A DNA stretch of 64,000 nucleotides from Gammaproteobacteria bacterium (GTDB lineage: Bacteria > Pseudomonadota > Gammaproteobacteria > GCA-001735895): positions 7,216-71,215 of the forward strand of contig JAUVCH010000002.1 of the NCBI GenBank assembly GCA_030595795.1, written 5' to 3'. Each line of letters opens with the position of its first letter. The stretch's first letter is position 1. Shown here one piece after another: positions 17,027 through 44,899 of the stretch. The translations under genes and the position numbers were made by a program. The notes under the pieces are model-generated. The model saw only the letters and a list, made by a program, of their open reading frames with translations, searched no databases and had not been told where the DNA came from.

Positions 17027-19282
17027 TTATTTCTGCGCCATATTTATTATGTGTGGGTTTTCCGACAATGACTTTGACTTTATTCTCAGCTGGCATTGGG
17101 AAAAATAAAAACGGGAAGGTCCATCATGAGGAAAGCTCCTTAATATCGACTTAAATTCTTCGGAAGCCTTTTTCCATTCCGCCCGCATAAACATATCAAA
17201 GCCTTTAGCAAATCGCTCGCAAAGTTCATTTTGTTGTGTGCTAGCTTCATTTGACAAACTAAGTATTTCGATGATGGGCAAGGGTTCGGTTTTCCCCACA
17301 AAAACAAAATGCCCTATGGGGCGAGTCAGTAAATAATCGATGCCTTCAATTTGGGGTTCAGTGGCGAGTATTTGCGTACCCACATGTTTATTTAACCCTT
17401 CAATGCGCGATGCGGTATTAGCACAGTCGCCTACGATACTGTAAACAAAGTGACCGCCACCGCCGGAGTGTCCGACATAAACTTCACCGGTTTCCATACC
17501 GATGCGCAAAGACGCATCAAAAGCATCGTGCCGGGCCTTGAAGTCCTCGATCGCATCAGCAGCTTGCAATGACGCGAGGATAGGCTTTTCACGTACGTCG
17601 ATATCAGATTCATCGCCGGTCCAGGCACACATAATGGCATCCGCGCGGAATTCGGTAACCGTGACATCATGATTACGCAAAGGTTGTGCCAGCGTGTCAA
17701 AATAATCATTTAAAAATTCAGCCAGTTCTCCGGGGGCCATGTTTTCGGCAATAGTCGAAAACCCTGCCATGTCGGTGGCCAGGCAGGTGCTAAAGATGAC
17801 CTGATTAATGTTTTCAGGAATAAGGTCGTTGCCGGTTAAGGCTTTTGATACTTCTTCGGGTACATAAAGACTAATCGCTTCGCTGATGTGTTTTACCTTG
17901 TGGCGCTGTTGTAAATACTGGGCTATCAAGCCGACAAACAACGCCAGAGGGAACTGAACTAGTAAGGGTATCGACAGGGGTAGCCATAGATAATCATTAT
18001 TGAACAGGGTTTGCGCATAAATCACATACCCACTAACAGCCAGAACCGAGACAGGCACGCCTATAATGGCGGGTGCCAGGTAAATTAACAGGCTGATCAT
18101 GAGCCCGAAACTGAATATAAAAATCAGATAGTTTTCAATTTTTGGGACTCTCAGGGACTGATTGTGTCGTAAGTTTCCGTATGCAGTTGCAGCTATCTCG
18201 ACACCGCTAAGATCAACACCATTTTCGTTGGTAAAAACAGTATAAAAGCGATCAGGCTGGCCAGGGTCATACAGATCCGAGAAGCCTACGAATACTACCT
18301 TGTTGGTCATATCCAGATCTTTGGCTGAGGTATTAGCGTCGGGGCCATTGATAACCGCGTAGTAGGGAACGCTTTTGATCGATCCGGGCGTTCCATAAAA
18401 ATTTAGATAACGTTCGTTCCTTCCAAGGTACATAGAAGTCAGCGAATGGAGTAATTGCTGAATTTCCTCGGATTCTTGCCCGACCCAGGGTTGTTGTAGT
18501 TCTCGTATCAAATTGTTTGCCAGGGTCGGAGATCGAGAAAGAGTACTCCGGATTCCAGTCATGAACCCATGCAGAGATTCTGCATCAGATATTTCGGCTG
18601 CAGATTGAGGGATTTTAAACTCCTGAGTCAATCGACTGTTCTTGAGTAAACGGTAAAATTGATTGTAGGCCTTTAGCGCTTGTACCTGTAATGCCACGGC
18701 GGGCATCGTAGGTGCTCCATACGCGCTATCTTTAAAGACCCAAGATTCGTAAACGGCCGCCTCTTGCTTGGGTAAGGGAAAAGGCCCCAGGCCTCGAGCG
18801 GCTTCCGACAGGACCGGCACAGGTGACAGAAGCTGTTCTACCCACACACTGCCACTGATTTTCCCCGATTTATCTTCAATCGGATTACCTTTGCCGGTCA
18901 GATACTGAAAAAGCACGACTCGTTCCGAGCGCTTTACTGAATCAGCAAAAATCTTTTCGTCACCTGGCGAACGTGGTTTGTGGAAATTAATATCAAAAAC
19001 AATAGTGGATGCGCCCAGTTTCACCAGAGCATCGACCAGCTTTCCGTGAATTGATCGGGGCCAGTCCCGGGGTAGCGGGGGGATATTCAGTTTCTTGCTG
19101 GTTAAACCATTGATTGCAATTACAACAGTTTCCGGCGGGGAGGGGATTTCACCGCGAATGGAAAATAACCAGCCCAGTCCAATGCTTCTTTCAAAAACTG
19201 TTCCGTAGGGTGACAGAGCTAACAGGCTACCAATCAAACCTATCGTCATGCCAAGGAGCAGACCTTTAATACCGCGTCGCAT
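17027..19282 (-). CDS. CHASE2 sensor domain-containing class III adenylate/guanylate cyclase
   Basis: 751 aa. N-terminal TM, then a large periplasmic CHASE2-like domain. Three TM helices follow (approx. aa 380-450). C-terminal cyclase homology domain (FSTCLATDMAGFS...GDCANTASRIEGLNK). Confidence 0.8.
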   Translation of the reverse strand: MRRGIKGLLLGMTIGLIGSLLALSPYGTVFERSIGLGWLFSIRGEIPSPPETVVIAINGLTSKKLNIPPLPRDWPRSIHGKLVDALVKLGASTIVFDINFHKPRSPGDEKIFADSVKRSERVVLFQYLTGKGNPIEDKSGKISGSVWVEQLLSPVPVLSEAARGLGPFPLPKQEAAVYESWVFKDSAYGAPTMPAVALQVQALKAYNQFYRLLKNSRLTQEFKIPQSAAEISDAESLHGFMTGIRSTLSRSPTLANNLIRELQQPWVGQESEEIQQLLHSLTSMYLGRNERYLNFYGTPGSIKSVPYYAVINGPDANTSAKDLDMTNKVVFVGFSDLYDPGQPDRFYTVFTNENGVDLSGVEIAATAYGNLRHNQSLRVPKIENYLIFIFSFGLMISLLIYLAPAIIGVPVSVLAVSGYVIYAQTLFNNDYLWLPLSIPLLVQFPLALFVGLIAQYLQQRHKVKHISEAISLYVPEEVSKALTGNDLIPENINQVIFSTCLATDMAGFSTIAENMAPGELAEFLNDYFDTLAQPLRNHDVTVTEFRADAIMCAWTGDESDIDVREKPILASLQAADAIEDFKARHDAFDASLRIGMETGEVYVGHSGGGGHFVYSIVGDCANTASRIEGLNKHVGTQILATEPQIEGIDYLLTRPIGHFVFVGKTEPLPIIEILSLSNEASTQQNELCERFAKGFDMFMRAEWKKASEEFKSILRSFPHDGPSRFYFSQCQLRIKSKSLSENPHIINMAQK

Positions 19283-19630
19283 AAGTTTAGTGTCTATAGT
19301 TTTTAAATATTATTTTAGTCGCATCACTCACCGATGCGAAATCTACCTTACATGAAATTTTTTTTCAGCGTTAAGGTTTTAGCGAAAAGAAATTGCTATC
19401 AGTCCGCTGAATCCGGATTTTATATTTATCACTTATTACGAATAATAAATCAGTTAACATTATTATTTAGGTAGGTTGTCTATGACAATCGCTATCCGTT
19501 GTATAATCCTTTAGGGGTAGAGCACTGCTCCAATATTCGTCATATGATTTAGTTATAAAAATATAATCAAAAAAAACAAATAAGAATGCCATGCAAATGC
19601 AGGCATCGAAGTTTATTGGAGGGGGACGCG
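19283..19630. promoter_or_regulatory. AT-rich divergent promoter region between the CHASE2 cyclase and the FecR/TPR/barrel gene
   Basis: About 300 bp, over 70% AT. Perfect TATAAT at about 19508 preceded by TTGTCT/TGACAA-like -35 candidates. GGAGGGGGA Shine-Dalgarno at 19618-19626. Confidence 0.4.
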
Positions 19631-22600
19631 TTGTTTACTTTATCGGTTCGATTTTATTCGAAATTAATCACTATATTCTTCATAACTCTGGTCGGTATAT
19701 CTGTCAGCAGACCAGCTATGGCCGCATGCGCCGAACTAGCAGGGAAATTCGTCTCCATCCAGGGCCAGGTAGATGTTCAGGCTCAGAATGGAAGTGCCTG
19801 GGATCTCGCCAAACTTGATGACGCTCTATGCGAAGGGGACAGTGTAAGGGTTGGTAAAGAAAGTCGAGCGGCTCTTTCTCTTGCAAATGATGCCGTACTG
19901 CGAATCGATGAAAACACAACCGTTCGGCTGGTTGATATAAATCAGGAGAAAAAAGAAAAATCACTTCTCGAACTGATATCGGGAGCAATCCAGTCTTTCA
20001 GCCGTAAACCTCGTGAGTTAGTAGTCAATACGCCATATCTCAATGGTTCTATCGAGGGTACTGAATTTATTATTAAAGTCGCTGACAACCAGACCCAGAT
20101 TACCGTATTTGAAGGTTTTGTCGTCGCGGCTAATGACCAGGGGGAAGTTCGGCTGGAGAGCGGACAGTCGGCTTCGGCCAGCGAGGGTAGCGCACCGGTA
20201 TCTCGAACCGTGATCAATCCCCGGGATCAGGTGCAGTGGGGATTATATTATCCGCCAATACTGTCGGCGGAAGGCGGCGCCAACGAACAGCGAGCCGCCG
20301 AATTACTGGCTTTAGGACAGATTAACGAAGCCAGTCAGATACTTGAAAGTGGTGCGGATTCACCGGTTGGGTTAGCCCTGCAGTCGGTAATTGCAATCAC
20401 TCTGAATGACCTGGAGGGGGCTCAGAATTACGCCGATAGAGCCGCTGCCCTGGACGCCAGCAGTGTCGCAGTAGCTATTGCTATGTCTTACGTGAAACAG
20501 GCACGGTTCGAACTAGAGCAGGCTCTGGCGGTCATTGACGCGGCGTTGCAGAAAGAATCTGGCAATGCATTACTGTGGGCTCGCGCTGGAGAATTGCGCC
20601 TGATGTCGGGGTTGAGCAGTGAGGCATTATCAGCAGCGAATAAAGCCAGCGAACTGGATCCGAATTCATCGCAGGCTAATCTGGTCAATGGTTTTGCTGC
20701 TTTATCGATTTTCGATACCGATCAGGCCGCGAGTAGTTTCAAAAATGCCATTGCACTCAATTCAGCTGATCCGATGGGTTACCTGGGACAGGGGTTGACT
20801 AAAATTAGCCAGGGTGATCTAGAAACCGGTCGCCATGACCTCGAAGTCGCTGTGAGCCTCGGTTCCAATAGTGCAATACTCCGCTCTTATCTGGGTAAAG
20901 CCTATTACGAAGAAAAGCGTAGTCCGCTGGAAGATCAGCAGTATAAAATTGCCCAACAACTCGATAGCAACGACCCGACCCCGTGGTTCTATCAGTCGAT
21001 TTCACAGCAAACACAAAATAATCCGGTAGAGGCCTTACAGAGTCAGCAAAAAGCGTTTGAGTTGAATGATAACCGCGCAGTTTATCGTTCGCGACTGTTG
21101 CTTGATTCTGACCGCGCAGCGCGCGGTGTTAGTTTGGGTCGGGTTTATAACGATCTGGGGTTTGAGCAACAAGCATTGGCGGAAGGTTGGAAATCAGTTA
21201 ATACCGATCCAACCAATTCCTCGGCGCATTTGTTTCTAGCCGACTCTTATGGAGCGTTACCGCGCCATGAAATCGCCAGAGTCAGCGAAGCGCTACAGGC
21301 TCAGATGTTGCAACCGGTTAATGCAGCTCCCGTTAGCCCAACCAAAGCGGAAGGTAAATTATTACTAGCTGCCAGTGGCCCCGCAGCAGTTGGATTCAAT
21401 GAATACAATGCGCTATTTGACCGTAATCAGACCAACGCGGTGATCAGTGGTATGGCGGGTGAGCATGGAACCAGTAGTGCAGAAGCTATAGTCTCGGGCT
21501 TACACGGTAAAACGGCATTCAGTGCAGGTATTTATCACTTTGAGACTGACGGTTTTCGTGACAGTGCTTTTCAGGAAGATGATATTGGCAACCTGTTCGT
21601 CCAGCATGATTTTAGTCTGGATACTAGTGTTCAGCTCGAATTCCGCTCGAGAGAAACCGAATACGGTGATGTTCGCCAGAAATTTCATGAGCATAGTATT
21701 TATCCAGACAAGTTAATTGTCGAGGAAACCGATACGCTACGTCTGGGTGCACGGCATTCTTTTGCGCCGGGGTCGGTGCTTCTTGTGTCACTAACTGATC
21801 AGGAAGGTAGCTTTAACGAGACCGATGAACCCTTCCCTCAGCCGGGGGTTCTCTTTTCCGAACTCGATAGCCCTGATCTTGAAGCAAAAGGCAGCGAGCT
21901 CCAGTACCTGTATCGTTCGCCTAAATTCAATGTTACTGCTGGTGTAGGTAATGTTGATTCTAAGGAGGATGTAACGAATAGAGCTTTACTTGATTTAGGC
22001 TTTTTTGGTGGTCCGCCTGGACTTTTATTGCCAATAGAAAGCGTCATTGAGGCAGATATCAAGCACGATAATGCTTATGCGTATTCGAATATCAATCTGA
22101 ACAACCAGATGATCATGACGCTTGGCGTTAGCTATGATGATGTTGATAGTGAATTTCTTGGAGAACCTGTAACGAAAACTAATCCAAAATTTGGCATGAC
22201 ATGGACACCGAATTCACAGACTACGGTGCGTTTGGCATCCTTCGAAACCATGAAACGTACCTTGTCTACGCAACAGACTCTGGAACCGACCCAGGTAGCT
22301 GGTTTTAATCAATTCTTCGATGACTATAACCTGACCGAAACAAAGCGCACAGGTATTGCGGTTGATTACAAATTTAATGCTAACCTGTCAGGTGGGCTGG
22401 AAATTTCAAAGCGGGAACTGGAGATACCCTACGTTGATTTGACCGCTTCACCACCCACGATAGAGGCTGCTGACTGGGAAGAGCGAACGAACCGAGCCTA
22501 TCTCTACTGGACACCCAATAAACAATGGGCACTGCGGGCTGAATATCTGTTTGAAAAACTGGAAAGGGGAGGCGGCACCTTTGTTGATGGTGTCATTGAA

Positions 22601-22921
22601 TCGGAGACGCATCGAGTTCCTTTTGGAGTCAGTTACTTTCACTCCGACAGGCTAAGTGCCTCTCTGACAGCGACTTATTATGATCAGGAGGGAGTATTCG
22701 GTGGTTTCTGGACCACGGATGCCATAGAGCCGGGTGAAGATGATTTCTGGATCGTCGATGCTGCGATTAATTACCTGCTACCCGGGAGGCGAGGTTTCGT
22801 CACAGTCGGTGCGACTAATTTAACCGATGAGGATTTCTCGTATTTCGACACGGACACGAATAACGCCAGCATACAACCCGCAAGCATGGTGTATGGCAAG
22901 TTGACATTATCGTTCCAATAA
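19631..22921 (+). CDS. Secreted FecR-domain / TPR / C-terminal beta-barrel protein (putative outer-membrane sensor or scaffold)
   Basis: ORF 19586..22921. Preferred start is TTG 19631, 8 nt after GGAGG, giving a classic signal peptide MFTLSVRFYSKLITIFFITLVGISVSRPAMA|A. Residues about 45-170 are FecR-like (VRVGKESRAALSLANDAVLRIDENTTVRL...GTEFII). Residues about 230-560 are TPR-like. The C-terminal about 500 aa has an alternating beta-strand pattern and ends KLTLSFQ, like an OM barrel. Confidence 0.65.
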   Translation: MFTLSVRFYSKLITIFFITLVGISVSRPAMAACAELAGKFVSIQGQVDVQAQNGSAWDLAKLDDALCEGDSVRVGKESRAALSLANDAVLRIDENTTVRLVDINQEKKEKSLLELISGAIQSFSRKPRELVVNTPYLNGSIEGTEFIIKVADNQTQITVFEGFVVAANDQGEVRLESGQSASASEGSAPVSRTVINPRDQVQWGLYYPPILSAEGGANEQRAAELLALGQINEASQILESGADSPVGLALQSVIAITLNDLEGAQNYADRAAALDASSVAVAIAMSYVKQARFELEQALAVIDAALQKESGNALLWARAGELRLMSGLSSEALSAANKASELDPNSSQANLVNGFAALSIFDTDQAASSFKNAIALNSADPMGYLGQGLTKISQGDLETGRHDLEVAVSLGSNSAILRSYLGKAYYEEKRSPLEDQQYKIAQQLDSNDPTPWFYQSISQQTQNNPVEALQSQQKAFELNDNRAVYRSRLLLDSDRAARGVSLGRVYNDLGFEQQALAEGWKSVNTDPTNSSAHLFLADSYGALPRHEIARVSEALQAQMLQPVNAAPVSPTKAEGKLLLAASGPAAVGFNEYNALFDRNQTNAVISGMAGEHGTSSAEAIVSGLHGKTAFSAGIYHFETDGFRDSAFQEDDIGNLFVQHDFSLDTSVQLEFRSRETEYGDVRQKFHEHSIYPDKLIVEETDTLRLGARHSFAPGSVLLVSLTDQEGSFNETDEPFPQPGVLFSELDSPDLEAKGSELQYLYRSPKFNVTAGVGNVDSKEDVTNRALLDLGFFGGPPGLLLPIESVIEADIKHDNAYAYSNINLNNQMIMTLGVSYDDVDSEFLGEPVTKTNPKFGMTWTPNSQTTVRLASFETMKRTLSTQQTLEPTQVAGFNQFFDDYNLTETKRTGIAVDYKFNANLSGGLEISKRELEIPYVDLTASPPTIEAADWEERTNRAYLYWTPNKQWALRAEYLFEKLERGGGTFVDGVIESETHRVPFGVSYFHSDRLSASLTATYYDQEGVFGGFWTTDAIEPGEDDFWIVDAAINYLLPGRRGFVTVGATNLTDEDFSYFDTDTNNASIQPASMVYGKLTLSFQ

Positions 22922-24769: not shown

Positions 24770-25600
24770 ATGTTCGATACCAACCCTTTTTACGATTTGT
24801 CAGGTTTCCTGACGCCGGCCATTATGCAAATGTATGTTGTAGCCATGTTCCTGGCTGTGATCGCCGGTACCATCATCGATACGATTCACAAGAAGAGCGC
24901 TCAGTACTTCTTTGAGAACGCTCAAAAGGCTCAGAAATCTGCCACGCGTACCGTAACTGGCGGCGAGAAGGTTTCATTGGCTATTTCTACCGTGGCCAGC
25001 GAGGTGCTGACTTCTTCTGAGTTTGCCAACCCAAAACGTCGCATGTCGCATTTACTGACTATGTATGGTTTCATTATTTTCCTTGTCACTACTGTGGCCA
25101 TGATTTTTGCTTACCCGACACCTGCTGAAGCCGCCCCTGAAATACTCACGGTTCTGTGGCATGTCGGTGCTCTAATGGTCTGTGTCGGCGGCTACTGGTT
25201 CTGGTTCTTCATCCGTTGCGATGTAAATTCCGAGGGTAAGCCCTGGTATCAGCTGGTTCGTGCTGACCTGTTCATCCTTTCATTGTTGATGACCGCCACC
25301 TTTGCCCTGCTGTGGTCTTACTTCGGCGGTATTTTACTGTTCACCATCTTCATTCTGGCCAGTACCTTTTTGTTTACTACCGTATTGTGGTCAAAGTTTG
25401 CTCATATGTTCTTCAAGCCAATGGCGGCCTACCAGAAGAAAATCACCAAGGCAGATGGTTCGCAAGAGAATCTTCCCGATTTGGGTGAGCTTACAGATCC
25501 TGATCTTCAAGCCAGATTTCCAGATATCCCGACATATATGGGTGAAAAACCAGTCCATATGGGACTTGGAATAAAGCGTGAATCTCCAAACCATTTCTAA
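24770..25600 (+). CDS. aprM: Adenylylsulfate reductase membrane anchor AprM
   Basis: 276-aa, 5-TM protein immediately upstream of aprB and aprA, the arrangement described for aprMBA in sulfur-oxidising gammaproteobacteria. Identity inferred from synteny plus topology. Confidence 0.65.
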   Translation: MFDTNPFYDLSGFLTPAIMQMYVVAMFLAVIAGTIIDTIHKKSAQYFFENAQKAQKSATRTVTGGEKVSLAISTVASEVLTSSEFANPKRRMSHLLTMYGFIIFLVTTVAMIFAYPTPAEAAPEILTVLWHVGALMVCVGGYWFWFFIRCDVNSEGKPWYQLVRADLFILSLLMTATFALLWSYFGGILLFTIFILASTFLFTTVLWSKFAHMFFKPMAAYQKKITKADGSQENLPDLGELTDPDLQARFPDIPTYMGEKPVHMGLGIKRESPNHF

Positions 25601-25652: not shown

Positions 25653-26135
25653 ATGCCTACATTTGTATATATGACTCGTTGCGATGGTTGTGGACATTGC
25701 GTTGATATCTGTCCTTCAGACATCATGCACATCGACAAAACCACGCGTCGTGCGTACAACATCGAACCAAACATGTGCTGGGAATGCTACTCATGTGTTA
25801 AAGCCTGCCCTCACAATGCCATCGACGTTCGTGGTTACGCAGACTTTGCGCCACTAGGTCACTCGGTACGCGTTATCCGTGATGAAGAAAAAGGTGTTAT
25901 TGCGTGGCGGATCAAATCCCGTAACGGCGAAACCGACATGAATCTGCTCGCACCTATCACAACAAAGCCCTGGGGTACGGCAATTCCAAAACTAGCTGAT
26001 GCACCTGCACCCAGCCAGGAAATGCGTGATAGCCAATTGTTATTTAACGAGCCTAAATATATTCGTATGGATGAGGGCGATATCCATACATTGGAGTCTA
26101 ACAAGCTCACGATGAAAGTTGGAGTTTACTACTAA
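25653..26135 (+). CDS. aprB: Adenylylsulfate reductase beta subunit (iron-sulfur) AprB
   Basis: 160 aa. MPTFVYMTRCDGCGHCVDICPSDIM...CWECYSCVKACPHNAI two [4Fe-4S] motifs plus the AprB-specific C-terminal tail. Confidence 0.9.
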   Translation: MPTFVYMTRCDGCGHCVDICPSDIMHIDKTTRRAYNIEPNMCWECYSCVKACPHNAIDVRGYADFAPLGHSVRVIRDEEKGVIAWRIKSRNGETDMNLLAPITTKPWGTAIPKLADAPAPSQEMRDSQLLFNEPKYIRMDEGDIHTLESNKLTMKVGVYY

Positions 26136-28000
26136 TGCCTAAAACTATCATAGAAGACAATATCGACGTCCTGGTCGCGGGCGCTGGCCTCGGTGGAACC
26201 GGTGCGGCTTTCGAAGCACGCTACTGGGGTAAAGATAAGAAGATCGTTATCGCCGAAAAAGCCAACATCGACCGTTCCGGCGCTGTGGCACAAGGGCTAT
26301 ACGCGATCAACTGTTACATGGGAACTCGTTTCGGTGAAAACAATCCTGAAGATCACGTGCGTTATGCACGTATGGATTTAATGGGTATGGTTCGCGAAGA
26401 CCTGTTGTTTGATATGGCCAGGCACGTCGACTCAACCGTGCACCAGTTCGAAGAATGGGGTCTGCCAATCATGCGCGATCCTAAGAGTGGATCCTATCTA
26501 CGCGAAGGACGCTGGCAGATCATGATTCACGGCGAGTCCTACAAGCCTATCGTGGCTGAAGCCGCAAAGAAATCGGCTGACAAGGTATTCAACCGTATTT
26601 GTGTCACCCATCTGCTAATGGATGATGCCAAAGAAAATCGGGTTGCCGGAGCTGTCGGCTTCAACGTACGTACTGGCGACTATCACGTATTCAAATCTAA
26701 AGCCGTTATCGTTGGTGCCGGTGGCGCATCCAACATCTTCAGGCCACGTTCGGTTGGTGAAGGTGCGGGTCGTGTCTGGTATGCACCCTGGTCCTCGGGC
26801 TCAGCCTATGGTTTGATGATCAATGCTGGCGCGAAAATGACCCAGATGGAAAACCGTATTGTACTGGCTCGATTCAAAGATGGTTACGGCCCGGTTGGTG
26901 CTTACTTTCTACATTTAAAAACTTACACTCAAAACTGTAATGGTGAAGAGTACGAGTCAAAGTGGTTTCCTGAACTGACGAAAATGGTGGGTAAGGAATA
27001 CCTGGATACAGAAGGTCAGCATTTATCGCATAAGCCAATTCCAACCTGTCTGCGTAACCATGCATTTATCAATGAGGTGAATGCTGGTCGTGGTCCTATC
27101 CACATGGTTACCATGGAAGCCTTCCAGGATCCACATCTGGAAGAGATCGGCTGGCACAACTTCCTCGGTATGACCATTGGTCAGGCTGTATTATGGGCGG
27201 CAACTGATGTCAATCCGAAGTACGAGAACCCAGAACTGACAACCTCCGAGCCGTACGTCATGGGTTCCCACGCAACCGGTAGTGGTGCCTGGTGTTCCGG
27301 TCCTGAAGATATCTCTCCTGACGAGTATTTCTGGGGCTATAACCGTATGACTACCGTCGAAGGTCTATTCGGTGCCGGTGACGCTGTTGGCGGTACACCG
27401 CATGCATTCTCTTCAGGCTCATTTACCGAAGGTCGCCTGGCTGCCAAGGCTGCCTGTAAGTACATTGACGATGGTAAGGCCGATGGTATTCGTGTTTCTC
27501 AGGAGCAGATCGATCGTCGCAAGAAAGAGATCTTCAAGCCAATGGAGCATTACAAGGTTTACCGTAACGAAATAACAGCGGGAAGTGTTAACCCTAACTA
27601 CATCAACCCGCGCCAGGGTCTTGATCGCTTGCAGAAGCTGATGGACGAGTACGCCGGTGGTGTAATAGTTAACTACATGACCAACGATAAGCTTTTGCAC
27701 ATCGGTCTGAAGAAATTGAAACTCCTGGAAGAGGATCTTGAGAAGGTTGCAGCAGAGGACATTCACGAACTACTTCGTGCATGGGAACTGAAGCATCGTC
27801 ATCTTACCTCTGAGTCTGTCGTGCAACATACCCTGTTCCGCAAGGAAACCCGTTGGCCGGGTTACTACTACCGCGGTGATGCGATGAAACTGGATGATGA
27901 GAACTGGCATGTACTGACAGTTTCCCATCGTGATCCAAAAACTGGTGAATACACCATGGAAAAAGCACCTCTTTATCACCTTGTAGACGATAAAGAATAG
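26135..28000 (+). CDS. aprA: Adenylylsulfate reductase alpha subunit (FAD) AprA
   Basis: 621 aa. DVLVAGAGLGGTGAAFEA FAD fold, fumarate-reductase-family flavoprotein. Start overlaps the aprB stop (ATGA). Confidence 0.9.
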   Translation: MPKTIIEDNIDVLVAGAGLGGTGAAFEARYWGKDKKIVIAEKANIDRSGAVAQGLYAINCYMGTRFGENNPEDHVRYARMDLMGMVREDLLFDMARHVDSTVHQFEEWGLPIMRDPKSGSYLREGRWQIMIHGESYKPIVAEAAKKSADKVFNRICVTHLLMDDAKENRVAGAVGFNVRTGDYHVFKSKAVIVGAGGASNIFRPRSVGEGAGRVWYAPWSSGSAYGLMINAGAKMTQMENRIVLARFKDGYGPVGAYFLHLKTYTQNCNGEEYESKWFPELTKMVGKEYLDTEGQHLSHKPIPTCLRNHAFINEVNAGRGPIHMVTMEAFQDPHLEEIGWHNFLGMTIGQAVLWAATDVNPKYENPELTTSEPYVMGSHATGSGAWCSGPEDISPDEYFWGYNRMTTVEGLFGAGDAVGGTPHAFSSGSFTEGRLAAKAACKYIDDGKADGIRVSQEQIDRRKKEIFKPMEHYKVYRNEITAGSVNPNYINPRQGLDRLQKLMDEYAGGVIVNYMTNDKLLHIGLKKLKLLEEDLEKVAAEDIHELLRAWELKHRHLTSESVVQHTLFRKETRWPGYYYRGDAMKLDDENWHVLTVSHRDPKTGEYTMEKAPLYHLVDDKE

Positions 28001-28017
28001 GCCGCTTTGCAGGTATC

Positions 28018-28079
28018 AAGGGTTGAACAATCAACCCTCAGTTGAAAAGAAGATCAACACTATTGTTGGTCTTTTTTTT
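28018..28079 (+). terminator. Tandem hairpins / terminator after aprA
   Basis: agggttga-acaa-tcaaccct 8-bp perfect hairpin, then caaca-ctat-tgttg hairpin followed by a run of 8 T. Confidence 0.55.
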
Positions 28080-28123
28080 CCTCCGATAATCCTGTTTAAT
28101 CTTAAAATTTAAAGCGAGTTTGT

Positions 28124-28474
28124 ATGAATATTATTGACAAGACTGATGAAGAACTTCAGAAAATCGCCTTTGCTTTCTTCGATGACCTGATCAAGTATTC
28201 CAATAAAGGACAGTATGGAAAGTTCATTCTGAACTTCTCCTACGACCTGCTGCTTGGCCTGAATGAGATGGAAGTCGGAAAGCAATTTGCCAAAAGTGAA
28301 TTGACTCGAAGCCTTGTGCCTGAATATAATTTTCTCGGCTTTATCCGTCGTGGCGAACATGTGACCTGCCTGTTTAGAGTACGCAGTACCAAGAAGGAAG
28401 GCGAATGGCTGGGACGTATGGTCATTGGTTACGAAAGAGGCGAAGTCAAAATTTTTGCAGCTTCAATTTTTTAG
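28124..28474 (+). CDS. Hypothetical cytoplasmic protein
   Basis: 116-aa ORF with reasonable codon usage downstream of aprA. No family recognised. Confidence 0.4.
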   Translation: MNIIDKTDEELQKIAFAFFDDLIKYSNKGQYGKFILNFSYDLLLGLNEMEVGKQFAKSELTRSLVPEYNFLGFIRRGEHVTCLFRVRSTKKEGEWLGRMVIGYERGEVKIFAASIF

Positions 28475-28486
28475 GATATACCGGAT

Positions 28487-29011
28487 ATGGCTAAGGAAAT
28501 TATCGAGGACGGCAAATATGTTGAGCTCACCTATAAAGTAATCGACCAGAATTCGGGCGCTGTACTAACAATGGTCGAGTATCCGATAGGATATGTTCAC
28601 GGCACCAACGAGATACTGGCGCCAGCGGTAATGGCAGAACTCAAGGGTAAATCTGTCAATGAAGTTATAGAAGTACCAATTGATTGCAATGAGTTATACG
28701 GCCCTCGTGACGAATCGCTGGTAATTACCTCTAGTAGACAAGATGTCCCTAAAGAATACCAGGAAGTCGGTATGGCCATTCTGATGGAAAATGACCAGGG
28801 ACAGAGTAAAAGTTTCCTGGTTACCCGTGTTGATGCAAAATCTGTCACTATCGATGGCAACAATCCGCTGTGTGGTCGAGAAGTTATTTTTCGATTGGAG
28901 ATATCGCTGGTTCGCGATGCGTCCGATGAAGAAATCGAGTATGGCGGCAAGATAGAAGAAGGCCCGGATCTTGATGGTGTAGAGGGCGTTACTCCCGTGT
29001 CCCTTAACTAA
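28487..29011 (+). CDS. FKBP-type peptidyl-prolyl cis-trans isomerase (SlyD/FkpB-like)
   Basis: 174 aa. ...NPLCGREVIFRLEISLVRDASDEEIEYGG matches the SlyD C-terminal FKBP segment (HPLAGK..F.V.L..VR.AT.EEL.HGH). Confidence 0.65.
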   Translation: MAKEIIEDGKYVELTYKVIDQNSGAVLTMVEYPIGYVHGTNEILAPAVMAELKGKSVNEVIEVPIDCNELYGPRDESLVITSSRQDVPKEYQEVGMAILMENDQGQSKSFLVTRVDAKSVTIDGNNPLCGREVIFRLEISLVRDASDEEIEYGGKIEEGPDLDGVEGVTPVSLN

Positions 29012-29035
29012 TCGACCCAGTTGCCCTAAAAAGTA

Positions 29036-29452
29036 ATGATCGAACAAACAGTACTTGCCGAAGACGAAGAATGTCGTTTCTGCCTATCCTATTCCGGTCG
29101 TCGCATCATAACCGAAGGAAAATTTGGCTTTGCTGCCTGGGATCGGCATCCGGCCAGCGAGGGACACTTTCTTGTCATCCCTTATCGTCATTTTTCCGAC
29201 TATTTTGACATCACCGACGAGGAACTGGTAGAACTTTGGGGGCTGGTCGCCGAAGGAAAGAGAATAGCCGACGAAAAGTTTAACCCTGATGGTTACAATA
29301 TCGGCATCAACGTCGGTAAATGGGCCGGACAGTCAATTCCTCATCTGCATATTCATGTTATTCCCCGATACAAGGGAGACGTCGAGAATCCGAAAGGGGG
29401 GGTTCGCGGGGTTATTCCTCAGAATAAGCTTTATGCGTTTAAGCCGGATTAA
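29036..29452 (+). CDS. HIT family (histidine triad) nucleotide hydrolase/transferase
   Basis: 138 aa. HLHIHVIPR histidine triad, N-terminal CRFC zinc motif. Confidence 0.8.
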   Translation: MIEQTVLAEDEECRFCLSYSGRRIITEGKFGFAAWDRHPASEGHFLVIPYRHFSDYFDITDEELVELWGLVAEGKRIADEKFNPDGYNIGINVGKWAGQSIPHLHIHVIPRYKGDVENPKGGVRGVIPQNKLYAFKPD

Positions 29453-29466
29453 ACGGCGCGCAAAAA

Positions 29467-29500
29467 AAGCCGTCAAAGACTAAAATCCTCGACGGCTTTC
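29467..29500 (+). terminator. Hairpin after the HIT gene
   Basis: aagccgtc ... gacggctt stem with a 15-nt loop, followed by TCG. Weak T-tract. Confidence 0.4.
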
Positions 29501-29565: not shown

Positions 29566-29727
29566 TCATGGACGTTTAGGCGTCTCGTATTTAACTTCTT
29601 TTTGAAACGATTCCCAGATTGTGTCATAACCAATGTAACCTTTATCATTGGCTTCTTTCTGGCGAGTAATTAAATACCGCGACTTGCCATCGGGAACCTT
29701 TATTCTGGTTTTCTTTGCTTCGCTCAT
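29566..29727 (-). CDS. Small basic ORF (53 aa), hypothetical
   Basis: Not in the ORF track (<60 aa). Reverse-strand translation MSEAKKTRIKVPDGKSRYLITRQKEANDKGYIGYDTIWESFQKEVKYETPKRP from ATG 29727 to TGA 29566, in an otherwise empty 440-bp gap. Confidence 0.3.
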   Translation of the reverse strand: MSEAKKTRIKVPDGKSRYLITRQKEANDKGYIGYDTIWESFQKEVKYETPKRP

Positions 29728-29897: not shown

Positions 29898-30539
29898 TTG
29901 GTGACCATGAAACTCATACAAAAACAGTTTTTAAAAGGAAGCAGTCAATTCGAGATCACTGACGATGTGGTTGAGATTCGAATTAAAACCCTGATTAAAG
30001 AAGAAAAACTGACCGTCATGTTGTCGATGCTGGATCCCGACCCTGTCGTCAATAAACCTTTCCTCGAGTTTCATAGCCGCGTTAAATGTGGCCCATTACT
30101 TTCACTTGTTCTGGATAAACCCGATAGAAAAACATTTAATACCTTTGTCGATCAATTAAAAATACGTGCCCGCGACGAATACAATGCTTTTGCCGGCCTG
30201 AAGCCAGGCTCTTTGTCTGAAGGACTTGTAGGGAATGTTAATACAGCGCCAGCAAAATTTGACAAGTCAGGTAAGAATTCAACGACTAAAAACCGCAAAC
30301 CGGTCGATATCGCCAATATTGAAATTGCAATACAGATGCTTGAACAGTATCTGGATGCTAAAGAGGTCGAGCCCCTGCTCTCTGCCTTAAAAGCGATAAA
30401 GTCAGAGCCGAAAAAAGAATCGCATTTTTCTCAATTGGTGGACGCATTCGATAGTCTGGGGCCTCAGCAAGGTGCTGTTTTAACCTACGCACCCTATGTT
30501 GGCACACTGCTGTCTGAAGATCCGTTTGGGTATTTATGA
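29898..30539 (+). CDS. Hypothetical protein
   Basis: 213-aa ORF whose stop overlaps the start of the next gene (ATGA), suggesting co-transcription with the dehydrogenase. No family recognised. Confidence 0.5.
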   Translation: MVTMKLIQKQFLKGSSQFEITDDVVEIRIKTLIKEEKLTVMLSMLDPDPVVNKPFLEFHSRVKCGPLLSLVLDKPDRKTFNTFVDQLKIRARDEYNAFAGLKPGSLSEGLVGNVNTAPAKFDKSGKNSTTKNRKPVDIANIEIAIQMLEQYLDAKEVEPLLSALKAIKSEPKKESHFSQLVDAFDSLGPQQGAVLTYAPYVGTLLSEDPFGYL

Positions 30540-31606
30540 TGGCTAATCATCGCATCGCGGTTATTCCTGGCGACGGTATCGGTAACGAAGTGGTTCCGGA
30601 AGGCCTCAAAGTGCTACAGGCGGTCGCCTCTCGGTTCGACATAGATTTCGAATTCCAACACTTTGACTGGAGTTGCGAGCGTTACCTGGAAACGGGTGCG
30701 ATGATGCCCGATGACGGAATCGAACAACTGGCTAAGTTCGACGCCATATTTCTCGGGGCGGTTGGCTTCCCAACCGTGCTCGATCATGTTTCGCTGTGGG
30801 GATTGCTGATTCCGATTCGACGTGAATTTCAACAGTATATAAATCTGCGCCCGGTTCGCCTGTTCGAGGGTATGCACTGTCCACTGGCAGGTAAAAAACC
30901 AGGCGACATCGACTTTTATGTGGTGCGTGAAAACTGCGAAGGCGAGTATTCCAATATCGGCGGCAGGTTATACGAAGGCACTGATAACGAAATGGCTATG
31001 CAGCAATCGATTTTCACCCGAAAGGGCGTGGATCGAGTATTGAAATATGCCTTCGAACTGGCAAGCCAAAGTGAGCGCAAGATGCTGACTTCTGCGACCA
31101 AGTCGAATGGTATTATTCATACTATGCCCTACTGGGACGAACGTGTCGTAGCCATGGCTGAGCATTACCCCAACATAGCCGTTGATAAATACCATATCGA
31201 TATTCTGGTTGCGCATTTTGTCAATCGACCGGAAATATTCAATGTGGTTGTCGGCTCCAACCTGTTTGGAGACATATTGTCAGACCTGGGGCCAGGCATT
31301 ACGGGTACGATTGCTATCGCACCTTCAGCCAATATCAATCCCGAAAAAGACTTCCCGTCGATGTTCGAGCCAGTGCACGGTTCAGCACCCGACATTGCCG
31401 GGCAGGGTATTGCCAACCCGATTGGTCAGATATGGTCGGGAGCGATGATGCTCGAGCACCTGGGTCATAAAGAGGCGCACGATGCGGTGATACGTGCCAT
31501 CGAAGATACGATTCGCGAACGCGATCATTTAACTGCCGATATGGGTGGAAGTGCCAATTGCGAGCAATGCGGTGATGCGATTATTGGGCGTCTACTAGCC
31601 AAGTAA
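30536..31606 (+). CDS. Tartrate dehydrogenase/decarboxylase / D-malate dehydrogenase (isocitrate-isopropylmalate dehydrogenase family)
   Basis: 356 aa. HRIAVIPGDGIGNEVVPEGLKVL N-terminus, NLRPVR, and GSAPDIAGQGIANPIG motifs of the beta-decarboxylating dehydrogenase family. Closest to the TtuC type. Confidence 0.8.
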   Translation: MMANHRIAVIPGDGIGNEVVPEGLKVLQAVASRFDIDFEFQHFDWSCERYLETGAMMPDDGIEQLAKFDAIFLGAVGFPTVLDHVSLWGLLIPIRREFQQYINLRPVRLFEGMHCPLAGKKPGDIDFYVVRENCEGEYSNIGGRLYEGTDNEMAMQQSIFTRKGVDRVLKYAFELASQSERKMLTSATKSNGIIHTMPYWDERVVAMAEHYPNIAVDKYHIDILVAHFVNRPEIFNVVVGSNLFGDILSDLGPGITGTIAIAPSANINPEKDFPSMFEPVHGSAPDIAGQGIANPIGQIWSGAMMLEHLGHKEAHDAVIRAIEDTIRERDHLTADMGGSANCEQCGDAIIGRLLAK

Positions 31607-35846: not shown

Positions 35847-36383
35847 ATGGGTGATATTCATTTGGAGGATTTTAATCAAACCCTGCCGCGGCAGAAAACT
35901 GTGTCAGCGGTAATTGAAAAGCGTGCCTCTGATAATGTCTGGTTAGACTTTACTTACAAAGCTATCGGTGTGGTGGTTGGTGAAGCTGGGCAGGAAAAGC
36001 AGGTTAAGCGGATATATCAGGACGGTAAGGTAGAGCATTTCCTGGTCACCGGGCTGGAGCTCAGGCTTCACGAAGATGAATGCGAGAGCTACTATCATAA
36101 TTTAATGTCACCGAAACCGGGTTGTTTTATCGTAGCTGAGGCCGTAGATGACCCGGATGAAATGCCGGTGCCCTACCTGGTGAGTTTGAGTTTTGATGAA
36201 GTCCATGCCTATCTCGAAGGCGACGAACAGGTTTACGCAGTAGAGATTCCCGCCGAGCTATATCAGTGGGCTGAAGCCTATGTGTTAACGCATTATGTCG
36301 CGATCAAAAAGACCAAACGAAAATTGAGGAACTGGACAGAGGAAGCCTCGGTAGCTGGAAAAGGCGCGCAAAAAACATCATGA
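35847..36383 (+). CDS. DUF3305-like protein (FDH-locus associated)
   Basis: 178 aa. First gene of the FDH-oriented block, overlaps the next gene by 4 nt. Family name recalled from memory. Confidence 0.5.
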   Translation: MGDIHLEDFNQTLPRQKTVSAVIEKRASDNVWLDFTYKAIGVVVGEAGQEKQVKRIYQDGKVEHFLVTGLELRLHEDECESYYHNLMSPKPGCFIVAEAVDDPDEMPVPYLVSLSFDEVHAYLEGDEQVYAVEIPAELYQWAEAYVLTHYVAIKKTKRKLRNWTEEASVAGKGAQKTS

Positions 36384-36967
36384 GCCAGAAGGAAGAGGAA
36401 GGCCTGTTATCGCGCTGGTCACGACGTAAATTACAAACACAGGAAGAGAGCCTCAAGGAAGAAGCAGTTTTGGCCACAGAACACCCGGATGTCGTCAATG
36501 CGATCAGTGTTGATGCGCCGCAGGCCGAAGTGCCCGACCAACCAGTTCTATCTGACGAAGATATGCCACCCATCGAATCGCTTACCGAAGACTCGGATTT
36601 TAGCGGATTCATGTCCTCAGGAGTGAGCGATAAATTACGCAATTTGGCTTTGCGAAAAATGTTTCATGCGCCGGTTTTCAATATACGTGATGGCCTCGAT
36701 GAATACGACGAAGACTATACATTTTTCGAACCGCTGGGTGATATTGTCACTTGTGATATGAAGCATCAAGTCGAAATGCTGGAGAAGAAGCGACTTGAAG
36801 AAGCGGAGCTGGAGGCGGCTGAAGAGCCAGTCGAAGCCGAGCTTGAGCCAGTCGAAGCTGAGCTTGAGCAGGCCGACGATGAGGATGATGAGCCCGAGCT
36901 TATCGACGACGAACCCGAACAACCCGAACAACCCGATCAAAGTGATATAACAGTAGAAAAATTATGA
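36380..36967 (+). CDS. DUF3306-like acidic protein (FDH-locus associated)
   Basis: 195 aa. N-terminal LSRWSRRK, very acidic C-terminal region (EAELEAAEEPVEAELEPVEAELEQADDEDDEPELIDDE). 4-nt overlap with both neighbours. Confidence 0.5.
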   Translation: MSQKEEEGLLSRWSRRKLQTQEESLKEEAVLATEHPDVVNAISVDAPQAEVPDQPVLSDEDMPPIESLTEDSDFSGFMSSGVSDKLRNLALRKMFHAPVFNIRDGLDEYDEDYTFFEPLGDIVTCDMKHQVEMLEKKRLEEAELEAAEEPVEAELEPVEAELEQADDEDDEPELIDDEPEQPEQPDQSDITVEKL

Positions 36968-38523
36968 GCCAGTCTAATCTTGATGCACGCGAATCGGCGC
37001 TTTCCGTACTCGATAGCTTTCAGACCACTGCGACCAGTCTGGTTAGCTATCAGTCTAACGGGCGAGCCATTGCCATCGGGGACGATGAGGCACTAGCCTG
37101 TTGTCGGCAATGGTCAGATCAATCCATTTTGACTCTGGTGTCTGCATCCGAGAAGGAGATTGTTGTGCAGGGTTATCTGGGTTCTTTTATTGTCAGGCTA
37201 ATTGACTCGAATGGTAACCCGCAAAATCTGGAAGCCGATATCGTGCTTGATCTAAATCCAGATCCGATAAATCAGAATGAAATATTGCCGCCAGGTTATC
37301 TACATACCTCGATAAACGAAGAAAATCAGCGCGAGGTCGAGGCACAGGTATTAGATCTGGTGGGTGAGTTCGAAAAGCCGAAATACTTTATCTATGATCC
37401 ATCGATTTGCGCGCACTCGGTGAATGGGGTCACTGTTTGCAGTCGGTGCATCGATGCCTGTCCAGCGGGTGCAATCCAAAGTGGCGGCAGTGAGATCGAA
37501 GTCGTGCCGTTTCTCTGTCAGGGTGGTGGAACCTGCGCCACGGTTTGTCCATCGGGAGCGATTCAGTACGCCTATCCGAATCTGTCGGATAGTGGTAATC
37601 AGATCCGCAAAATGTTGCAGGCTTACCGTGAAGCACAGGGAGAACGGGCTGCTGTACTATTTCATGGGGAAGCTTTTTCACCGCAGGCGTTAATGCGGCA
37701 ACACGATAATCTATTACCAGTCCGGGTTGAGGAGCTTGCCAGCGTAGGAGTCGAGTTATGTATGTCGGCACTCGCCTATGGTGCCTCTCAGGTGGTATTG
37801 ATGCTCGACGAAACAGTACCAGGGCTGTCTATAGAAAATCTTAAGCGGCAAGTCGACTGGATGCAGGTTTTGCTAAAAAGTATTGGCATTAATCCCCAGC
37901 AGATTAGCCTTCAGTCCGATTTGATGGCGTTGTCCATGATCGATTCCGCTATCGCTATTGATCCTGCTATACACAGCATGGCGGATGGTAAACGTAATGC
38001 TTTTTATCAGGCACTGGATCACCTGGTCACACAGTTCGGTTGTGCTGACGTGGTTGCTGACCTGCCCGCGGGTGCGCCATTTGGCACGGTGGTCATCGAC
38101 GAAAATAAATGCACGCTGTGCATGGCCTGTATTGGTGCTTGTCCGGGTCGAGCCTTGCAGGATGGTTCTAATCGGGAAGTGCCCGAAGTGTTTTTCATCG
38201 AGAATCATTGCATTCAATGCGGTGCCTGCACTCAGACTTGCCCGGAGCAGGCGATTACCCTGGCGCCTCGCCTCATATTTGATCGGGAAAGCAGAAATAA
38301 ATCGCAGGCGCTCAATCGTGATGAACCGTTTGGTTGTATCGAATGCGGGAAACCTTTCGCGCCGACTTCGGTGATTGAAAAAATGCTGACACAACTAGAA
38401 GACCATCATATGTTTAATACGCCTCGCGCGCTGGATCGACTGAAGATGTGCGAAGACTGTCGAGTGGTGGATATTGTCCAGGATCCAGAAGCGATGAAGG
38501 GTGATTTTGACGCACTTAATTAG
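36964..38523 (+). CDS. Multi-cluster 4Fe-4S ferredoxin-domain protein
   Basis: 519 aa with at least four CxxCxxCxxxCP motifs. Confidence 0.7.
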   Translation: MSQSNLDARESALSVLDSFQTTATSLVSYQSNGRAIAIGDDEALACCRQWSDQSILTLVSASEKEIVVQGYLGSFIVRLIDSNGNPQNLEADIVLDLNPDPINQNEILPPGYLHTSINEENQREVEAQVLDLVGEFEKPKYFIYDPSICAHSVNGVTVCSRCIDACPAGAIQSGGSEIEVVPFLCQGGGTCATVCPSGAIQYAYPNLSDSGNQIRKMLQAYREAQGERAAVLFHGEAFSPQALMRQHDNLLPVRVEELASVGVELCMSALAYGASQVVLMLDETVPGLSIENLKRQVDWMQVLLKSIGINPQQISLQSDLMALSMIDSAIAIDPAIHSMADGKRNAFYQALDHLVTQFGCADVVADLPAGAPFGTVVIDENKCTLCMACIGACPGRALQDGSNREVPEVFFIENHCIQCGACTQTCPEQAITLAPRLIFDRESRNKSQALNRDEPFGCIECGKPFAPTSVIEKMLTQLEDHHMFNTPRALDRLKMCEDCRVVDIVQDPEAMKGDFDALN

Positions 38524-38632
38524 TATGTAAGTTATTTATTACCCATTATGGTTATAAATAGTTATTATTCCCCTATATATTTTGGAATGCAGGTTGCTAT
38601 ATATTTTGGATAAAAACAATGAAACCGAAGAC

Positions 38633-39295
38633 ATGACATCAATCGCCACTGCCCTGCCTATAGAAAGTGGTTCTATAGAGGCAACCGACTTGCTGGGTGA
38701 GTGCCCAGATAGCGAGACTATTAGCGAGGAGCAGCGTTACCGTGCGTCCGCCTATGGTTTGCTGGCCGCGTTGCTACGTAGCTCTCCCGATCAGGTTATG
38801 CTCAGTCAATTGTGTGATCTTTGTGAAACTACCAGCGAAGGCGACGAGCTTATGCTGTCGATGTCGATGCTTGCGCTGGCGGCAAAGGTGCATAACGCTG
38901 AAGATGTTGAGGATGAATTTCATCAATTGTTTATCGGTTTGGGTAAGGGTGAAGTTGTCCCGTATGGATCGTGGTATTTGACCGGGTTTCTCATGGAGAA
39001 GCCGCTGAGCGATCTACGAGAAGATTTGGCGAGACTCGGTTTTGAGCGAAGTGACGATGTCGCCGAGCCGGAAGATCACGCCGCTGCGTTGTGCGAAGTG
39101 ATTTCGATCATGATCGGCGATGCGAGCGAGCTTTCGGAGCAGGATCAATTTTTTCAAACCCATATGGCCAACTGGCTGGATCGATTTTTTAATGACCTGG
39201 GTAATGCCGGTTCTGCCGTTTTTTATAAATCTGTTGCACGTTTTGGTGCCGCATTTATCGCATTGGAAAAACAGTATTTTTCCATGCAAGTATGA
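38633..39295 (+). CDS. TorD/DmsD-family redox enzyme maturation chaperone
   Basis: About 220 aa. EPEDHAAALCEVISIM motif typical of the TorD/NarJ family. Lies directly upstream of the Tat-dependent FDH catalytic subunit. ORF track start TTG 38582, ATG 38633 preferred. Confidence 0.6.
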   Translation: MTSIATALPIESGSIEATDLLGECPDSETISEEQRYRASAYGLLAALLRSSPDQVMLSQLCDLCETTSEGDELMLSMSMLALAAKVHNAEDVEDEFHQLFIGLGKGEVVPYGSWYLTGFLMEKPLSDLREDLARLGFERSDDVAEPEDHAAALCEVISIMIGDASELSEQDQFFQTHMANWLDRFFNDLGNAGSAVFYKSVARFGAAFIALEKQYFSMQV

Positions 39296-39338
39296 GTTGT
39301 TGATAGCAATCTAATCGACCTTTCGAGGGGAGTATCTG

Positions 39339-39545
39339 GTGAAAAAGACAAATGAGACGTTAAACAATAATAGACGGGATTTCATAAAGAAATCAGCTCT
39401 GGTTGGTGTGGGTGTCGCTGCCAGTACGGTCGCAAGTGGCGAGGCCATGGCGGCAGTGACGACTGACACTGTCGAAACCGGGAAAAATAAAGGCTATCAA
39501 CTAACACAACATGTTGCTGATTATTACAAATCAGCAGCAAGCTAA
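39339..39545 (+). CDS. Small twin-arginine signal protein ('formate dehydrogenase region TAT target' type)
   Basis: 68 aa, NNNRRDFIKKSALVGVGVAA Tat motif. GTG start after GAGGGGAG. Confidence 0.55.
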   Translation: MKKTNETLNNNRRDFIKKSALVGVGVAASTVASGEAMAAVTTDTVETGKNKGYQLTQHVADYYKSAAS

Positions 39546-39563
39546 ACGCGAGGAGATTGAAAT

Positions 39564-42443: not shown

Positions 42444-42461
42444 CTAGCGAGGAACTATAAA

Positions 42462-43055: not shown

Positions 43056-43156
43056 AGGGTAATCAATAATAAAATAGTTTGGCCGGGTTTTGATAATAAA
43101 AGATATCAGAACTCGGCTTGATTTTTGGCTAAGAGACAATAACGAGAGGTTGTCGC

Positions 43157-44883: not shown

Positions 44884-44899
44884 TAACCGGAGGTCAACT

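Follow-up and report, generated by a model that had tools for sequence, protein, structure and literature searches.

In a 64,000-nucleotide stretch of a gammaproteobacterial genome (lineage GCA-001735895; contig JAUVCH010000002.1, forward strand, positions 7,216 to 71,215; hereafter the window), the genes aprM, aprB and aprA, which encode the membrane anchor and the two subunits of adenosine-5'-phosphosulfate (APS) reductase, are followed by three short genes, the last of which encodes a 138-residue protein of the histidine triad (HIT) family. Members of one HIT subfamily, which fall into three sub-lineages, adjoin aprMBA in two proteobacterial classes, with five gene orders between them. Since simple co-inheritance of a gene block fails to explain five gene orders in two classes, a functional tie between this subfamily and AprMBA is likely. 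As to its nature we tentatively propose, with a probability of about 45%, that the HIT protein is an accessory enzyme of AprMBA that would act on APS, by hydrolysis or phosphorolysis, and recycle adenosine monophosphate (AMP) to AprBA.

The sulfur cycle has one of its main branches in the conversion of sulfite to sulfate by way of APS, the second step of which is, to our knowledge, known only as ATP sulfurylase (Sat) or, in Thiobacillus, as adenylylsulfate:phosphate adenylyltransferase (APAT). Pelagibacter (SAR11) is the most abundant marine bacterium. Candidatus Pelagibacter ubique possesses aprBA and lacks sat (PMC5069961), and 'most SAR11 lack ATP sulfurylase' (PMC10356861); the fate of APS in Pelagibacter, which carries and expresses aprBA and in most strains is without Sat, is an acknowledged gap (PMC5069961, PMC10356861). 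A HIT gene beside aprMBA, which in Pelagibacter lies directly 5' of aprM, is a concrete and testable candidate for the step from APS to sulfate and, if the proposal is true, would close the removal by Pelagibacter of sulfite from taurine and other organosulfur compounds. The literature searched, with most subscription journals outside its scope, yielded no paper linking HIT proteins with apr genes or SAR11, and the combination of 'SAR11' and 'histidine triad' returned zero papers there.

Recurrent linkage of the HIT gene to aprMBA

The apr block of the window comprises the following features (aa, amino acids):

24770-25600, plus strand: aprM, 276 aa, membrane anchor of lineage-I APS reductase, directly 5' of aprB; weak QmoC/TcuB-like similarity (NCBIfam)
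25653-26135, plus strand: aprB, 160 aa, APS reductase beta subunit (TIGR02060, 209 bits, cut-off 136; PF12139, APS-reductase_C)
26135-28000, plus strand: aprA, 621 aa, APS reductase alpha subunit (TIGR02061, 1092 bits, cut-off 642)
28019-28038 and 28044-28079, plus strand: double hairpin 3' of aprA (RNAfold of 28001-28123, -38.6 kcal/mol), the second hairpin followed by eight U
28124-28474, plus strand: p116, 116 aa, no Pfam or NCBIfam family; predicted NTF2-like fold
28487-29011, plus strand: SlyD-like FKBP-type chaperone/prolyl isomerase, 174 aa (E. coli SlyD chains in the PDB, E = 6e-16, residues 12-153)
29036-29452, plus strand: HIT protein, 138 aa (Pfam PF01230, 77.6 bits, gathering cut-off 21.5)

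The original prediction of three short genes on the strand of aprA, for a 116-aa, a SlyD-like and a 138-aa HIT protein, is borne out by open reading frame (ORF) listing and family scans. They share the plus strand with aprMBA and are separated from one another by spacers of 12 and 24 nt. They are real genes, as p116 and HIT each have thousands of public homologues (identity 74-96% among the 120 matches listed for each).

A scan with the HIT protein as query, with one genome per species, gave 27 loci, whose genes were mapped by tblastn. The order aprM-aprB-aprA-p116-slyD-HIT is contiguous in 15 of these species-representative loci, and independent metagenome contigs show the same contiguous order wherever their length suffices. 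In all, the block, at times extended by p53 and p213 (described below), is present in about 20 gammaproteobacterial genomes, all with different flanking genes. Elsewhere the HIT gene lies 1.8-4.2 kb beyond slyD (L018, L019, L023) or about 8.5 kb from p116 and slyD (L029), and in Candidatus Achromatium palustre (L026), where p116 and slyD are absent, it is transcribed away from aprM, the two genes lying about 0.5 kb apart. Homologues of aprM, 41-83% identical, occupy the equivalent position wherever the related contigs extend that far; lineage-I aprBA is always preceded by aprM (PMC2211403). Because no window gene outside the interval from aprM to p213, a conserved gene downstream of HIT, was found in the locus of any other organism, the apr-HIT block is evidently kept while its flanking genes change.

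We also read the apr locus of four members of AprA clusters at 90% identity. One of them, a gammaproteobacterial metagenome-assembled genome (MAG; L131-133), has the order aprMBA-p116-slyD-TPR-HIT with a 2-nt spacer before HIT. Its HIT protein is merely 45-46% identical to that of the window although its AprA is 91% identical; it retains the C-terminal tail of the subfamily (as GDVEDPRGGVR), and its 90% cluster includes a protein of Sulfuriflexus sp.

A metagenome scan with an alignment of distant p116 relatives led to 80 marine contigs of 27-37% GC content, on which aprA stands immediately 5' of p116 wherever upstream sequence exists. The taxon is Candidatus Pelagibacter: the AprA and Xsc clusters contain proteins named Candidatus Pelagibacter sp. 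or Candidatus Pelagibacter ubique by NCBI. One contig is 1.15 Mb long, with 30% GC. In 8 of the 12 loci with enough upstream sequence, a 132-aa HIT gene lies directly 5' of aprM on the same strand, in the order pabB-pabA-pabC-HIT-aprM-aprB-aprA-p116-(47 aa)-TauE-thioredoxin, with Xsc about 3 kb further on. One exact Pelagibacter HIT protein was apr-adjacent in all six places shown (25 contigs read). The Pelagibacter proteins are 41-48% identical to the HIT protein of the window and share the motifs CxFC, AGQSIxHCHIHLIPR and GDVxNPQGGVRxVIP. No sat gene occurs within 10 kb in any Pelagibacter locus.

The original prediction had made itself refutable by the absence of such linkage in other genomes; the linkage is conserved, in several gene orders, in both Gammaproteobacteria and Pelagibacter, and it is not universal.

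The HIT subfamily and its possible role

The HIT protein carries the motifs C13-R-F-C16 and A97-G-Q-S-I-P-H103-L-H105-I-H107-V-I-P-R111 and the C-terminal tail G114-D-V-E-N-P-K-G-G-V-R124-G-V-I-P128. Its identity as a HIT protein with HLHIHVIPR and CxxC, predicted at the outset, is confirmed by the Pfam match and the translation. The histidine-triad motif HxHxHxx (H103-L-H105-I-H107-V-I) is invariant in 22 aligned members of the subfamily, and all apr-linked HIT proteins compared have in common the signature CxxC, AGQS(I/V)xHxHxHx(I/M)PR and a tail GDVxxPxGGVR. Across the gammaproteobacterial and SAR11 members, 43 alignment columns are invariant, the tail included. Directly established are thus the existence and family of the gene, the conservation of the catalytic motif and the repeated association with aprMBA.

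At E <= 0.01 the Pfam families matching the 138-aa protein are HIT, DcpS_C and CwfJ_C_1, and no others. A PDB search with the single sequence finds as its nearest structures the mycobacterial diadenosine tetraphosphate (Ap4A) phosphorylases 3ano and 6af2 (E = 1e-19 to 1e-20, residues 23-117), while a search with the subfamily profile ranks first 2eo4, an uncharacterised HIT protein of 150 aa; no solved structure in these searches aligns across the C-terminal tail. Matches to Fhit (E = 5e-11), HINT1 (about 1e-9) and E. coli HinT (2.6e-5) are weaker. The motif HVIPR..GD is Fhit-like, yet the match to Fhit is weaker than those to bacterial and archaeal HIT proteins of unknown function.

Three characterised families were tried and set aside. 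The Hint/HinT type is excluded by a score of 28.2 bits for PRK10687 (cut-off 206), by the sequence IPRYKGD rather than GG after the triad and by the distance to HinT. The family of the mycobacterial Ap4A phosphorylases is excluded by 71.9 bits for NF052622 ('ATP adenylyltransferase'; cut-off 290), by the absence of the N-terminal extension and by Gln99 in place of Ser. The GalT/APAT branch is set apart by the length of only 138 residues and the absence of any GalT-family Pfam match, not by comparison with an APAT sequence. The protein appears, accordingly, to be no member of any characterised HIT family compared and to represent a small HIT subfamily of its own, marked at the C-terminus by the conserved GDVxNPxGGVR tail. 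The subfamily assignment for which the original prediction had called is thus provided in part, by the exclusion of Hint, GalT/APAT and the mycobacterial phosphorylases. The canonical Gln99 is a weak hint at most in the choice between hydrolase and phosphorylase, which sequence alone does not decide.

HIT enzymes cleave compounds of the form AMP-X by way of an AMP-histidine intermediate, and Fhit, Hint4 and DcpS act on APS, with both hydrolysis and phosphorolysis seen (PMC4613722), so that what the original prediction had said of HIT enzymes has its place in the literature. Given this chemistry, and since the AprBA reaction involves no adenylylated metabolite other than APS, APS would be the most economical substrate. 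The middle histidine of the triad, H105, would attack the alpha-phosphate of APS; sulfate would depart and an AMP-histidine intermediate would form, from which water would release AMP, or phosphate would release adenosine diphosphate (ADP); HIT is thus a candidate adenylylsulfatase (EC 3.6.2.1) or APS:phosphate adenylyltransferase (EC 2.7.7.5). With AMP returning to AprBA, the two enzymes would oxidise sulfite to sulfate using AMP catalytically, with no ATP sulfurylase or pyrophosphate. What the enzyme acts on, whether it hydrolyses or phosphorolyses and how strongly it is expressed are points that we infer. A bolder version, which we hold possible and rather doubtful, is that AprMBA, p116 and the HIT subfamily constitute a pathway that leads from sulfite to sulfate, recycles AMP and does without Sat, and in which HIT would be the missing APS-to-sulfate enzyme of Pelagibacter, with AMP or ADP as product, and a bypass of Sat in Gammaproteobacteria. 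In Pelagibacter, mostly without Sat, HIT could account for most of the conversion of APS to sulfate; where Sat is present, as in some gammaproteobacterial relatives, it could serve as a pyrophosphate-independent bypass or as a guard against build-up of APS, and its expression, through read-through of the aprA terminator, would be low.

The hairpin at 28044-28079 with its U-run is predicted to be an intrinsic terminator or attenuator between aprA and p116, and hairpin and U-run are kept in this spacer in nearly all of ten related gammaproteobacterial loci folded with RNAfold. A scan for consensus promoters found none between the terminator and p116. Since a terminator follows aprA and no promoter was found before p116, expression of p116, slyD and HIT probably depends on read-through and stays below that of aprMBA.

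Several points weigh against an action of HIT on APS, or against its being a main flux. The strong and conserved terminator suggests that HIT is expressed far below AprBA and, because it separates aprA from p116-slyD-HIT, a side role would fit Gammaproteobacteria better than the main flux. Sat shares the apr-HIT locus in L004/5, L014, L016 and L021, so HIT is not required there as a substitute for it. The original prediction that no sat is adjacent holds throughout the 64-kb window, in which tblastn with the Sat of a relative found none; its suggestion that HIT is the APS-consuming step has to be narrowed, as HIT is not simply 'the' step in relatives with sat in the same locus. Linkage fails in other places as well: L030 and L031 have HIT orthologues, 66-71% identical, whose surroundings contain no apr gene out to about 10 kb (the remaining loci of the 27 are too short to judge), and no HIT gene occurs within 7-8 kb of apr in Acidiferrobacter sp. 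(aprMBA-p116-slyD-p53, p53 being a small gene described below), in Candidatus Kentron (aprMBA-p116-slyD) or in a low-GC SUP05-like MAG (aprMBA-p116, then cbbQ). In the other 4 of the 12 Pelagibacter loci pabC abuts aprM with no HIT between, and where HIT is present it shares its first 8 nt with the end of the pabC-like gene; adjacency is weaker evidence in SAR11, whose genomes are very compact, and cysC in SAR11 (PMC5069961) is another possible sink for APS. Finally, plain hydrolysis of APS would squander the energy stored in its phosphosulfate bond, the leaving group of the reaction is not assignable from sequence, and in the AlphaFold2 (AF2) model of HIT the core is confident and the C-terminal tail has a confidence score (pLDDT) below 50.

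The likeliest alternative, itself improbable in our judgement, is that HIT is a housekeeping hydrolase of diadenosine tri- or tetraphosphate (Ap3A/Ap4A) or a nucleoside phosphoramidase, which stands near apr through block inheritance or lateral transfer. Its orthologues are annotated 'Ap4A HIT family hydrolase' in source databases, its active site is canonical, with Gln99 against the Ser of the mycobacterial phosphorylase, and orthologues do occur away from apr (L030, L031). Moreover, lateral movement of aprBA is known (PMC2211403), and two genes without known function, p53 and p213, also travel with the block. Co-inheritance, however, accounts neither for the five gene orders nor for a 45%-identical HIT at the end of an operon whose AprA is 91% identical, and it leaves unexplained the insertion of HIT exactly between pabC and aprM in a Pelagibacter genome of about 1.2-1.4 Mb; by our own estimate, the chance that a given gene adjoins the apr cluster is a few in a thousand.

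HIT, p116 and SlyD might, alternatively, all be factors for the maturation or maintenance of AprBA, HIT applying its nucleotide chemistry to the flavoenzyme or its cofactor, for instance to remove a misbound adenylyl adduct, or otherwise keeping AprA active, which we likewise regard as distinctly unlikely. E. coli HinT, on which the flavoenzyme D-alanine dehydrogenase depends for its activity, offers an analogy. In the window HIT is packed with p116 and a chaperone-type gene (spacers as above) behind a terminator, as would suit accessory factors of low abundance; SlyD has been linked to iron-sulfur biogenesis (PMC10653786), and AprB contains two [4Fe-4S] clusters (PMC2211403). A maturation factor, on the other hand, should match p116 in universality, whereas HIT is absent from several apr loci and slyD from those of Pelagibacter, and in Pelagibacter and Achromatium the HIT gene is not beside p116 or slyD. 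Nor do we know of any HIT protein that acts as an assembly factor of APS reductase. Least probable is a Hint-type phosphoramidase that clears side products of a high APS pool (adenosine-5'-phosphoramidate from APS and ammonia, or adenylylated lysines): APS is an adenylyl donor, its ammonolysis to AMP-NH2 and the hydrolysis of nucleoside phosphoramidates are documented reactions of HIT proteins (PMC4613722), and low expression behind a terminator and coexistence with sat would fit, but such adducts are not known to form in these bacteria and the protein is less similar to Hint/HinT (E. coli HinT, E = 2.6e-5) than to Fhit-like and bacterial HIT proteins (best 1e-19).

Neighbouring genes and the rest of the window

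No gene accompanies aprMBA more constantly than p116, which is nearly always the fourth gene of the lineage-I clusters and whose product may be an unrecognised component or partner of AprMBA. The gene stands immediately 3' of aprA in Gammaproteobacteria, in the SUP05-like MAG and in Pelagibacter; its positions in other loci include L118:13656-14006, L130:9878-10228 and L124:8960-9349. In the closest gammaproteobacterial lineages p116 is 87-95% identical, about as conserved as AprA and AprB, and HIT 76-87%. The family comprises 211 clusters at 50% identity among 1.84 billion representatives; the distant relatives L035-L037, 27-37% identical, lie on contigs of 620-710 nt. By its predicted fold, an alpha+beta cone, p116 falls within the NTF2-like superfamily. 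In several related gammaproteobacterial loci a near-identical stretch, AGCGAGUUUGU, directly precedes its start codon.

The 174-aa protein appears to be a SlyD-like homologue rather than an equivalog: it scores 62.6 bits for NF008008, under the cut-off of 174, has no match to Pfam FKBP_C at E <= 0.01 and ends in a tail without histidines, that is, without a His-rich metal-binding tail. Its gene follows p116 in the gammaproteobacterial loci and is absent from those of Pelagibacter; in the SUP05-like locus no slyD follows p116, and a weak match lies on the minus strand about 2 kb downstream. In some close relatives (L004/L005:980-2797; also L014, L016 and L021) the order of genes is sat - Metallophos_2 phosphoesterase - aprMBA - p116 - slyD - HIT.

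Downstream of HIT the block ends with three further features:

29466-29499, no strand assigned: hairpin between the convergent HIT and p53 genes, stem AAAGCCGUC / GACGGCUUU, preceded by A7 on the plus strand (RNAfold and sequence)
29566-29727, minus strand: p53, 53 aa, MSEAKKTRIKVPDGKSRYL...KYETPKRP, called as a gene in L001; no Pfam match
29898-30539, plus strand: p213, conserved hypothetical protein, no Pfam match; downstream edge of the conserved block

As the U-run of the hairpin at 29466-29499 is on the minus strand, this structure is mainly the terminator of p53, with bidirectional action possible. The three short genes had been placed between two terminator-like structures; the one after aprA, with its hairpins and eight U, stands as described, whereas the one after HIT serves mainly p53, a gene that the original prediction had not listed. 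An Rfam scan of the window gave no match.

The p53 protein is 68-89% identical in related loci, where its gene accompanies the apr block in varying position and orientation. One of its positions is L124:10021-10182; in Acidiferrobacter sp. it is the next gene after slyD, on the strand of the latter. Homologues of p213, 47-70% identical, lie near HIT in most related loci (e.g. L018:6667-8441; L027:2467-3836), in some of them beside a GNAT gene (Acetyltransf_6). In the window the end of p213 runs into the start of a gene for tartrate dehydrogenase (30536-31606; TIGR02089, 545 bits), and from this gene onward the window has no gene in common with the locus of any other organism.

The Pelagibacter locus L118 (14260-19085) encodes, beyond p116, a TauE/SafE exporter, thioredoxin, a two-part altronate-dehydratase-like pair and the sulfite-producing enzyme sulfoacetaldehyde acetyltransferase (Xsc). 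From these gene contents, the Pelagibacter apr locus appears to bring together the making of sulfite, its oxidation and its export.

Just upstream of the apr block of the window (17027-22921), a CHASE2-domain adenylate/guanylate cyclase (751 aa, minus strand) lies beside an 1111-aa FecR-domain/TPR protein; neither gene is conserved in the related loci. A redox cluster at 35847-46168 comprises DUF3305, DUF3306, a 519-aa Fe-S protein, a TorD-like chaperone, a 959-aa molybdopterin oxidoreductase, a 4Fe-4S subunit, a cytochrome b561-type subunit and a CCG-domain (Hdr/GlpC-like) protein. At 57143-64000 a single ORF of at least 2286 codons, which begins with a signal-like hydrophobic stretch and runs off the window end, probably encodes a giant secreted or surface protein.

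Comparison with known systems

The 174-aa neighbour shares with E. coli SlyD the architecture of an FKBP domain with an insert in the flap, and lacks the His-rich nickel-binding tail of the latter.

The HIT protein has the HxHxHxx motif in common with human Fhit, Arabidopsis thaliana Hint4 and Caenorhabditis elegans DcpS, for which APS sulfohydrolase and/or phosphorylase activity in vitro is documented (PMC4613722 and its reference 11). In these proteins the activity on APS is one of several promiscuous ones and is not known to be tied to dissimilatory sulfur metabolism. In an approximate comparison with reference sequences, identity to the HIT protein is about 28% for Fhit and about 28-36% for Fhit and HINT1 together, and the eukaryotic proteins lack the GDVxNPxGGVR tail. 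Similarly, the mycobacterial proteins Rv2613c (3ano) and 6af2 share the core motifs GxNxGxNxG and HLHxHVxPRxxGD. They differ in an N-terminal extension of about 65-85 residues (the match begins at residue 85 of 218 in 3ano), in one additional residue before the triad and in their tails. At the site of Gln99, four residues before the first triad His, 3ano has Ser, which in the 3wo5 chain is changed to Gln.

The role proposed for the HIT protein is that of Sat or of APAT. Textbooks pair AprBA, in the oxidative direction, with Sat, which is often encoded beside aprMBA, as in Allochromatium vinosum (PMC8232776) and in L004, L014, L016 and L021. In fold and mechanism Sat is unrelated to HIT proteins; it needs pyrophosphate and makes ATP. 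APAT is a protein of about 41 kDa on the GalT branch. According to PMC8232776, which cites Bruser et al. 2000, APAT ('ADP sulfurylase') of the sulfur oxidiser Thiobacillus denitrificans belongs to the HIT superfamily and consumes the product of APS reductase, a task for which ATP sulfurylase is the alternative enzyme. By contrast, and with APAT known here by description only, the protein of the window is a single HIT domain of 138 aa with no GalT-family Pfam match. It would thus seem to be a small Fhit/Hint-like domain with a new conserved tail, for a role that is itself already known from APAT and Sat.

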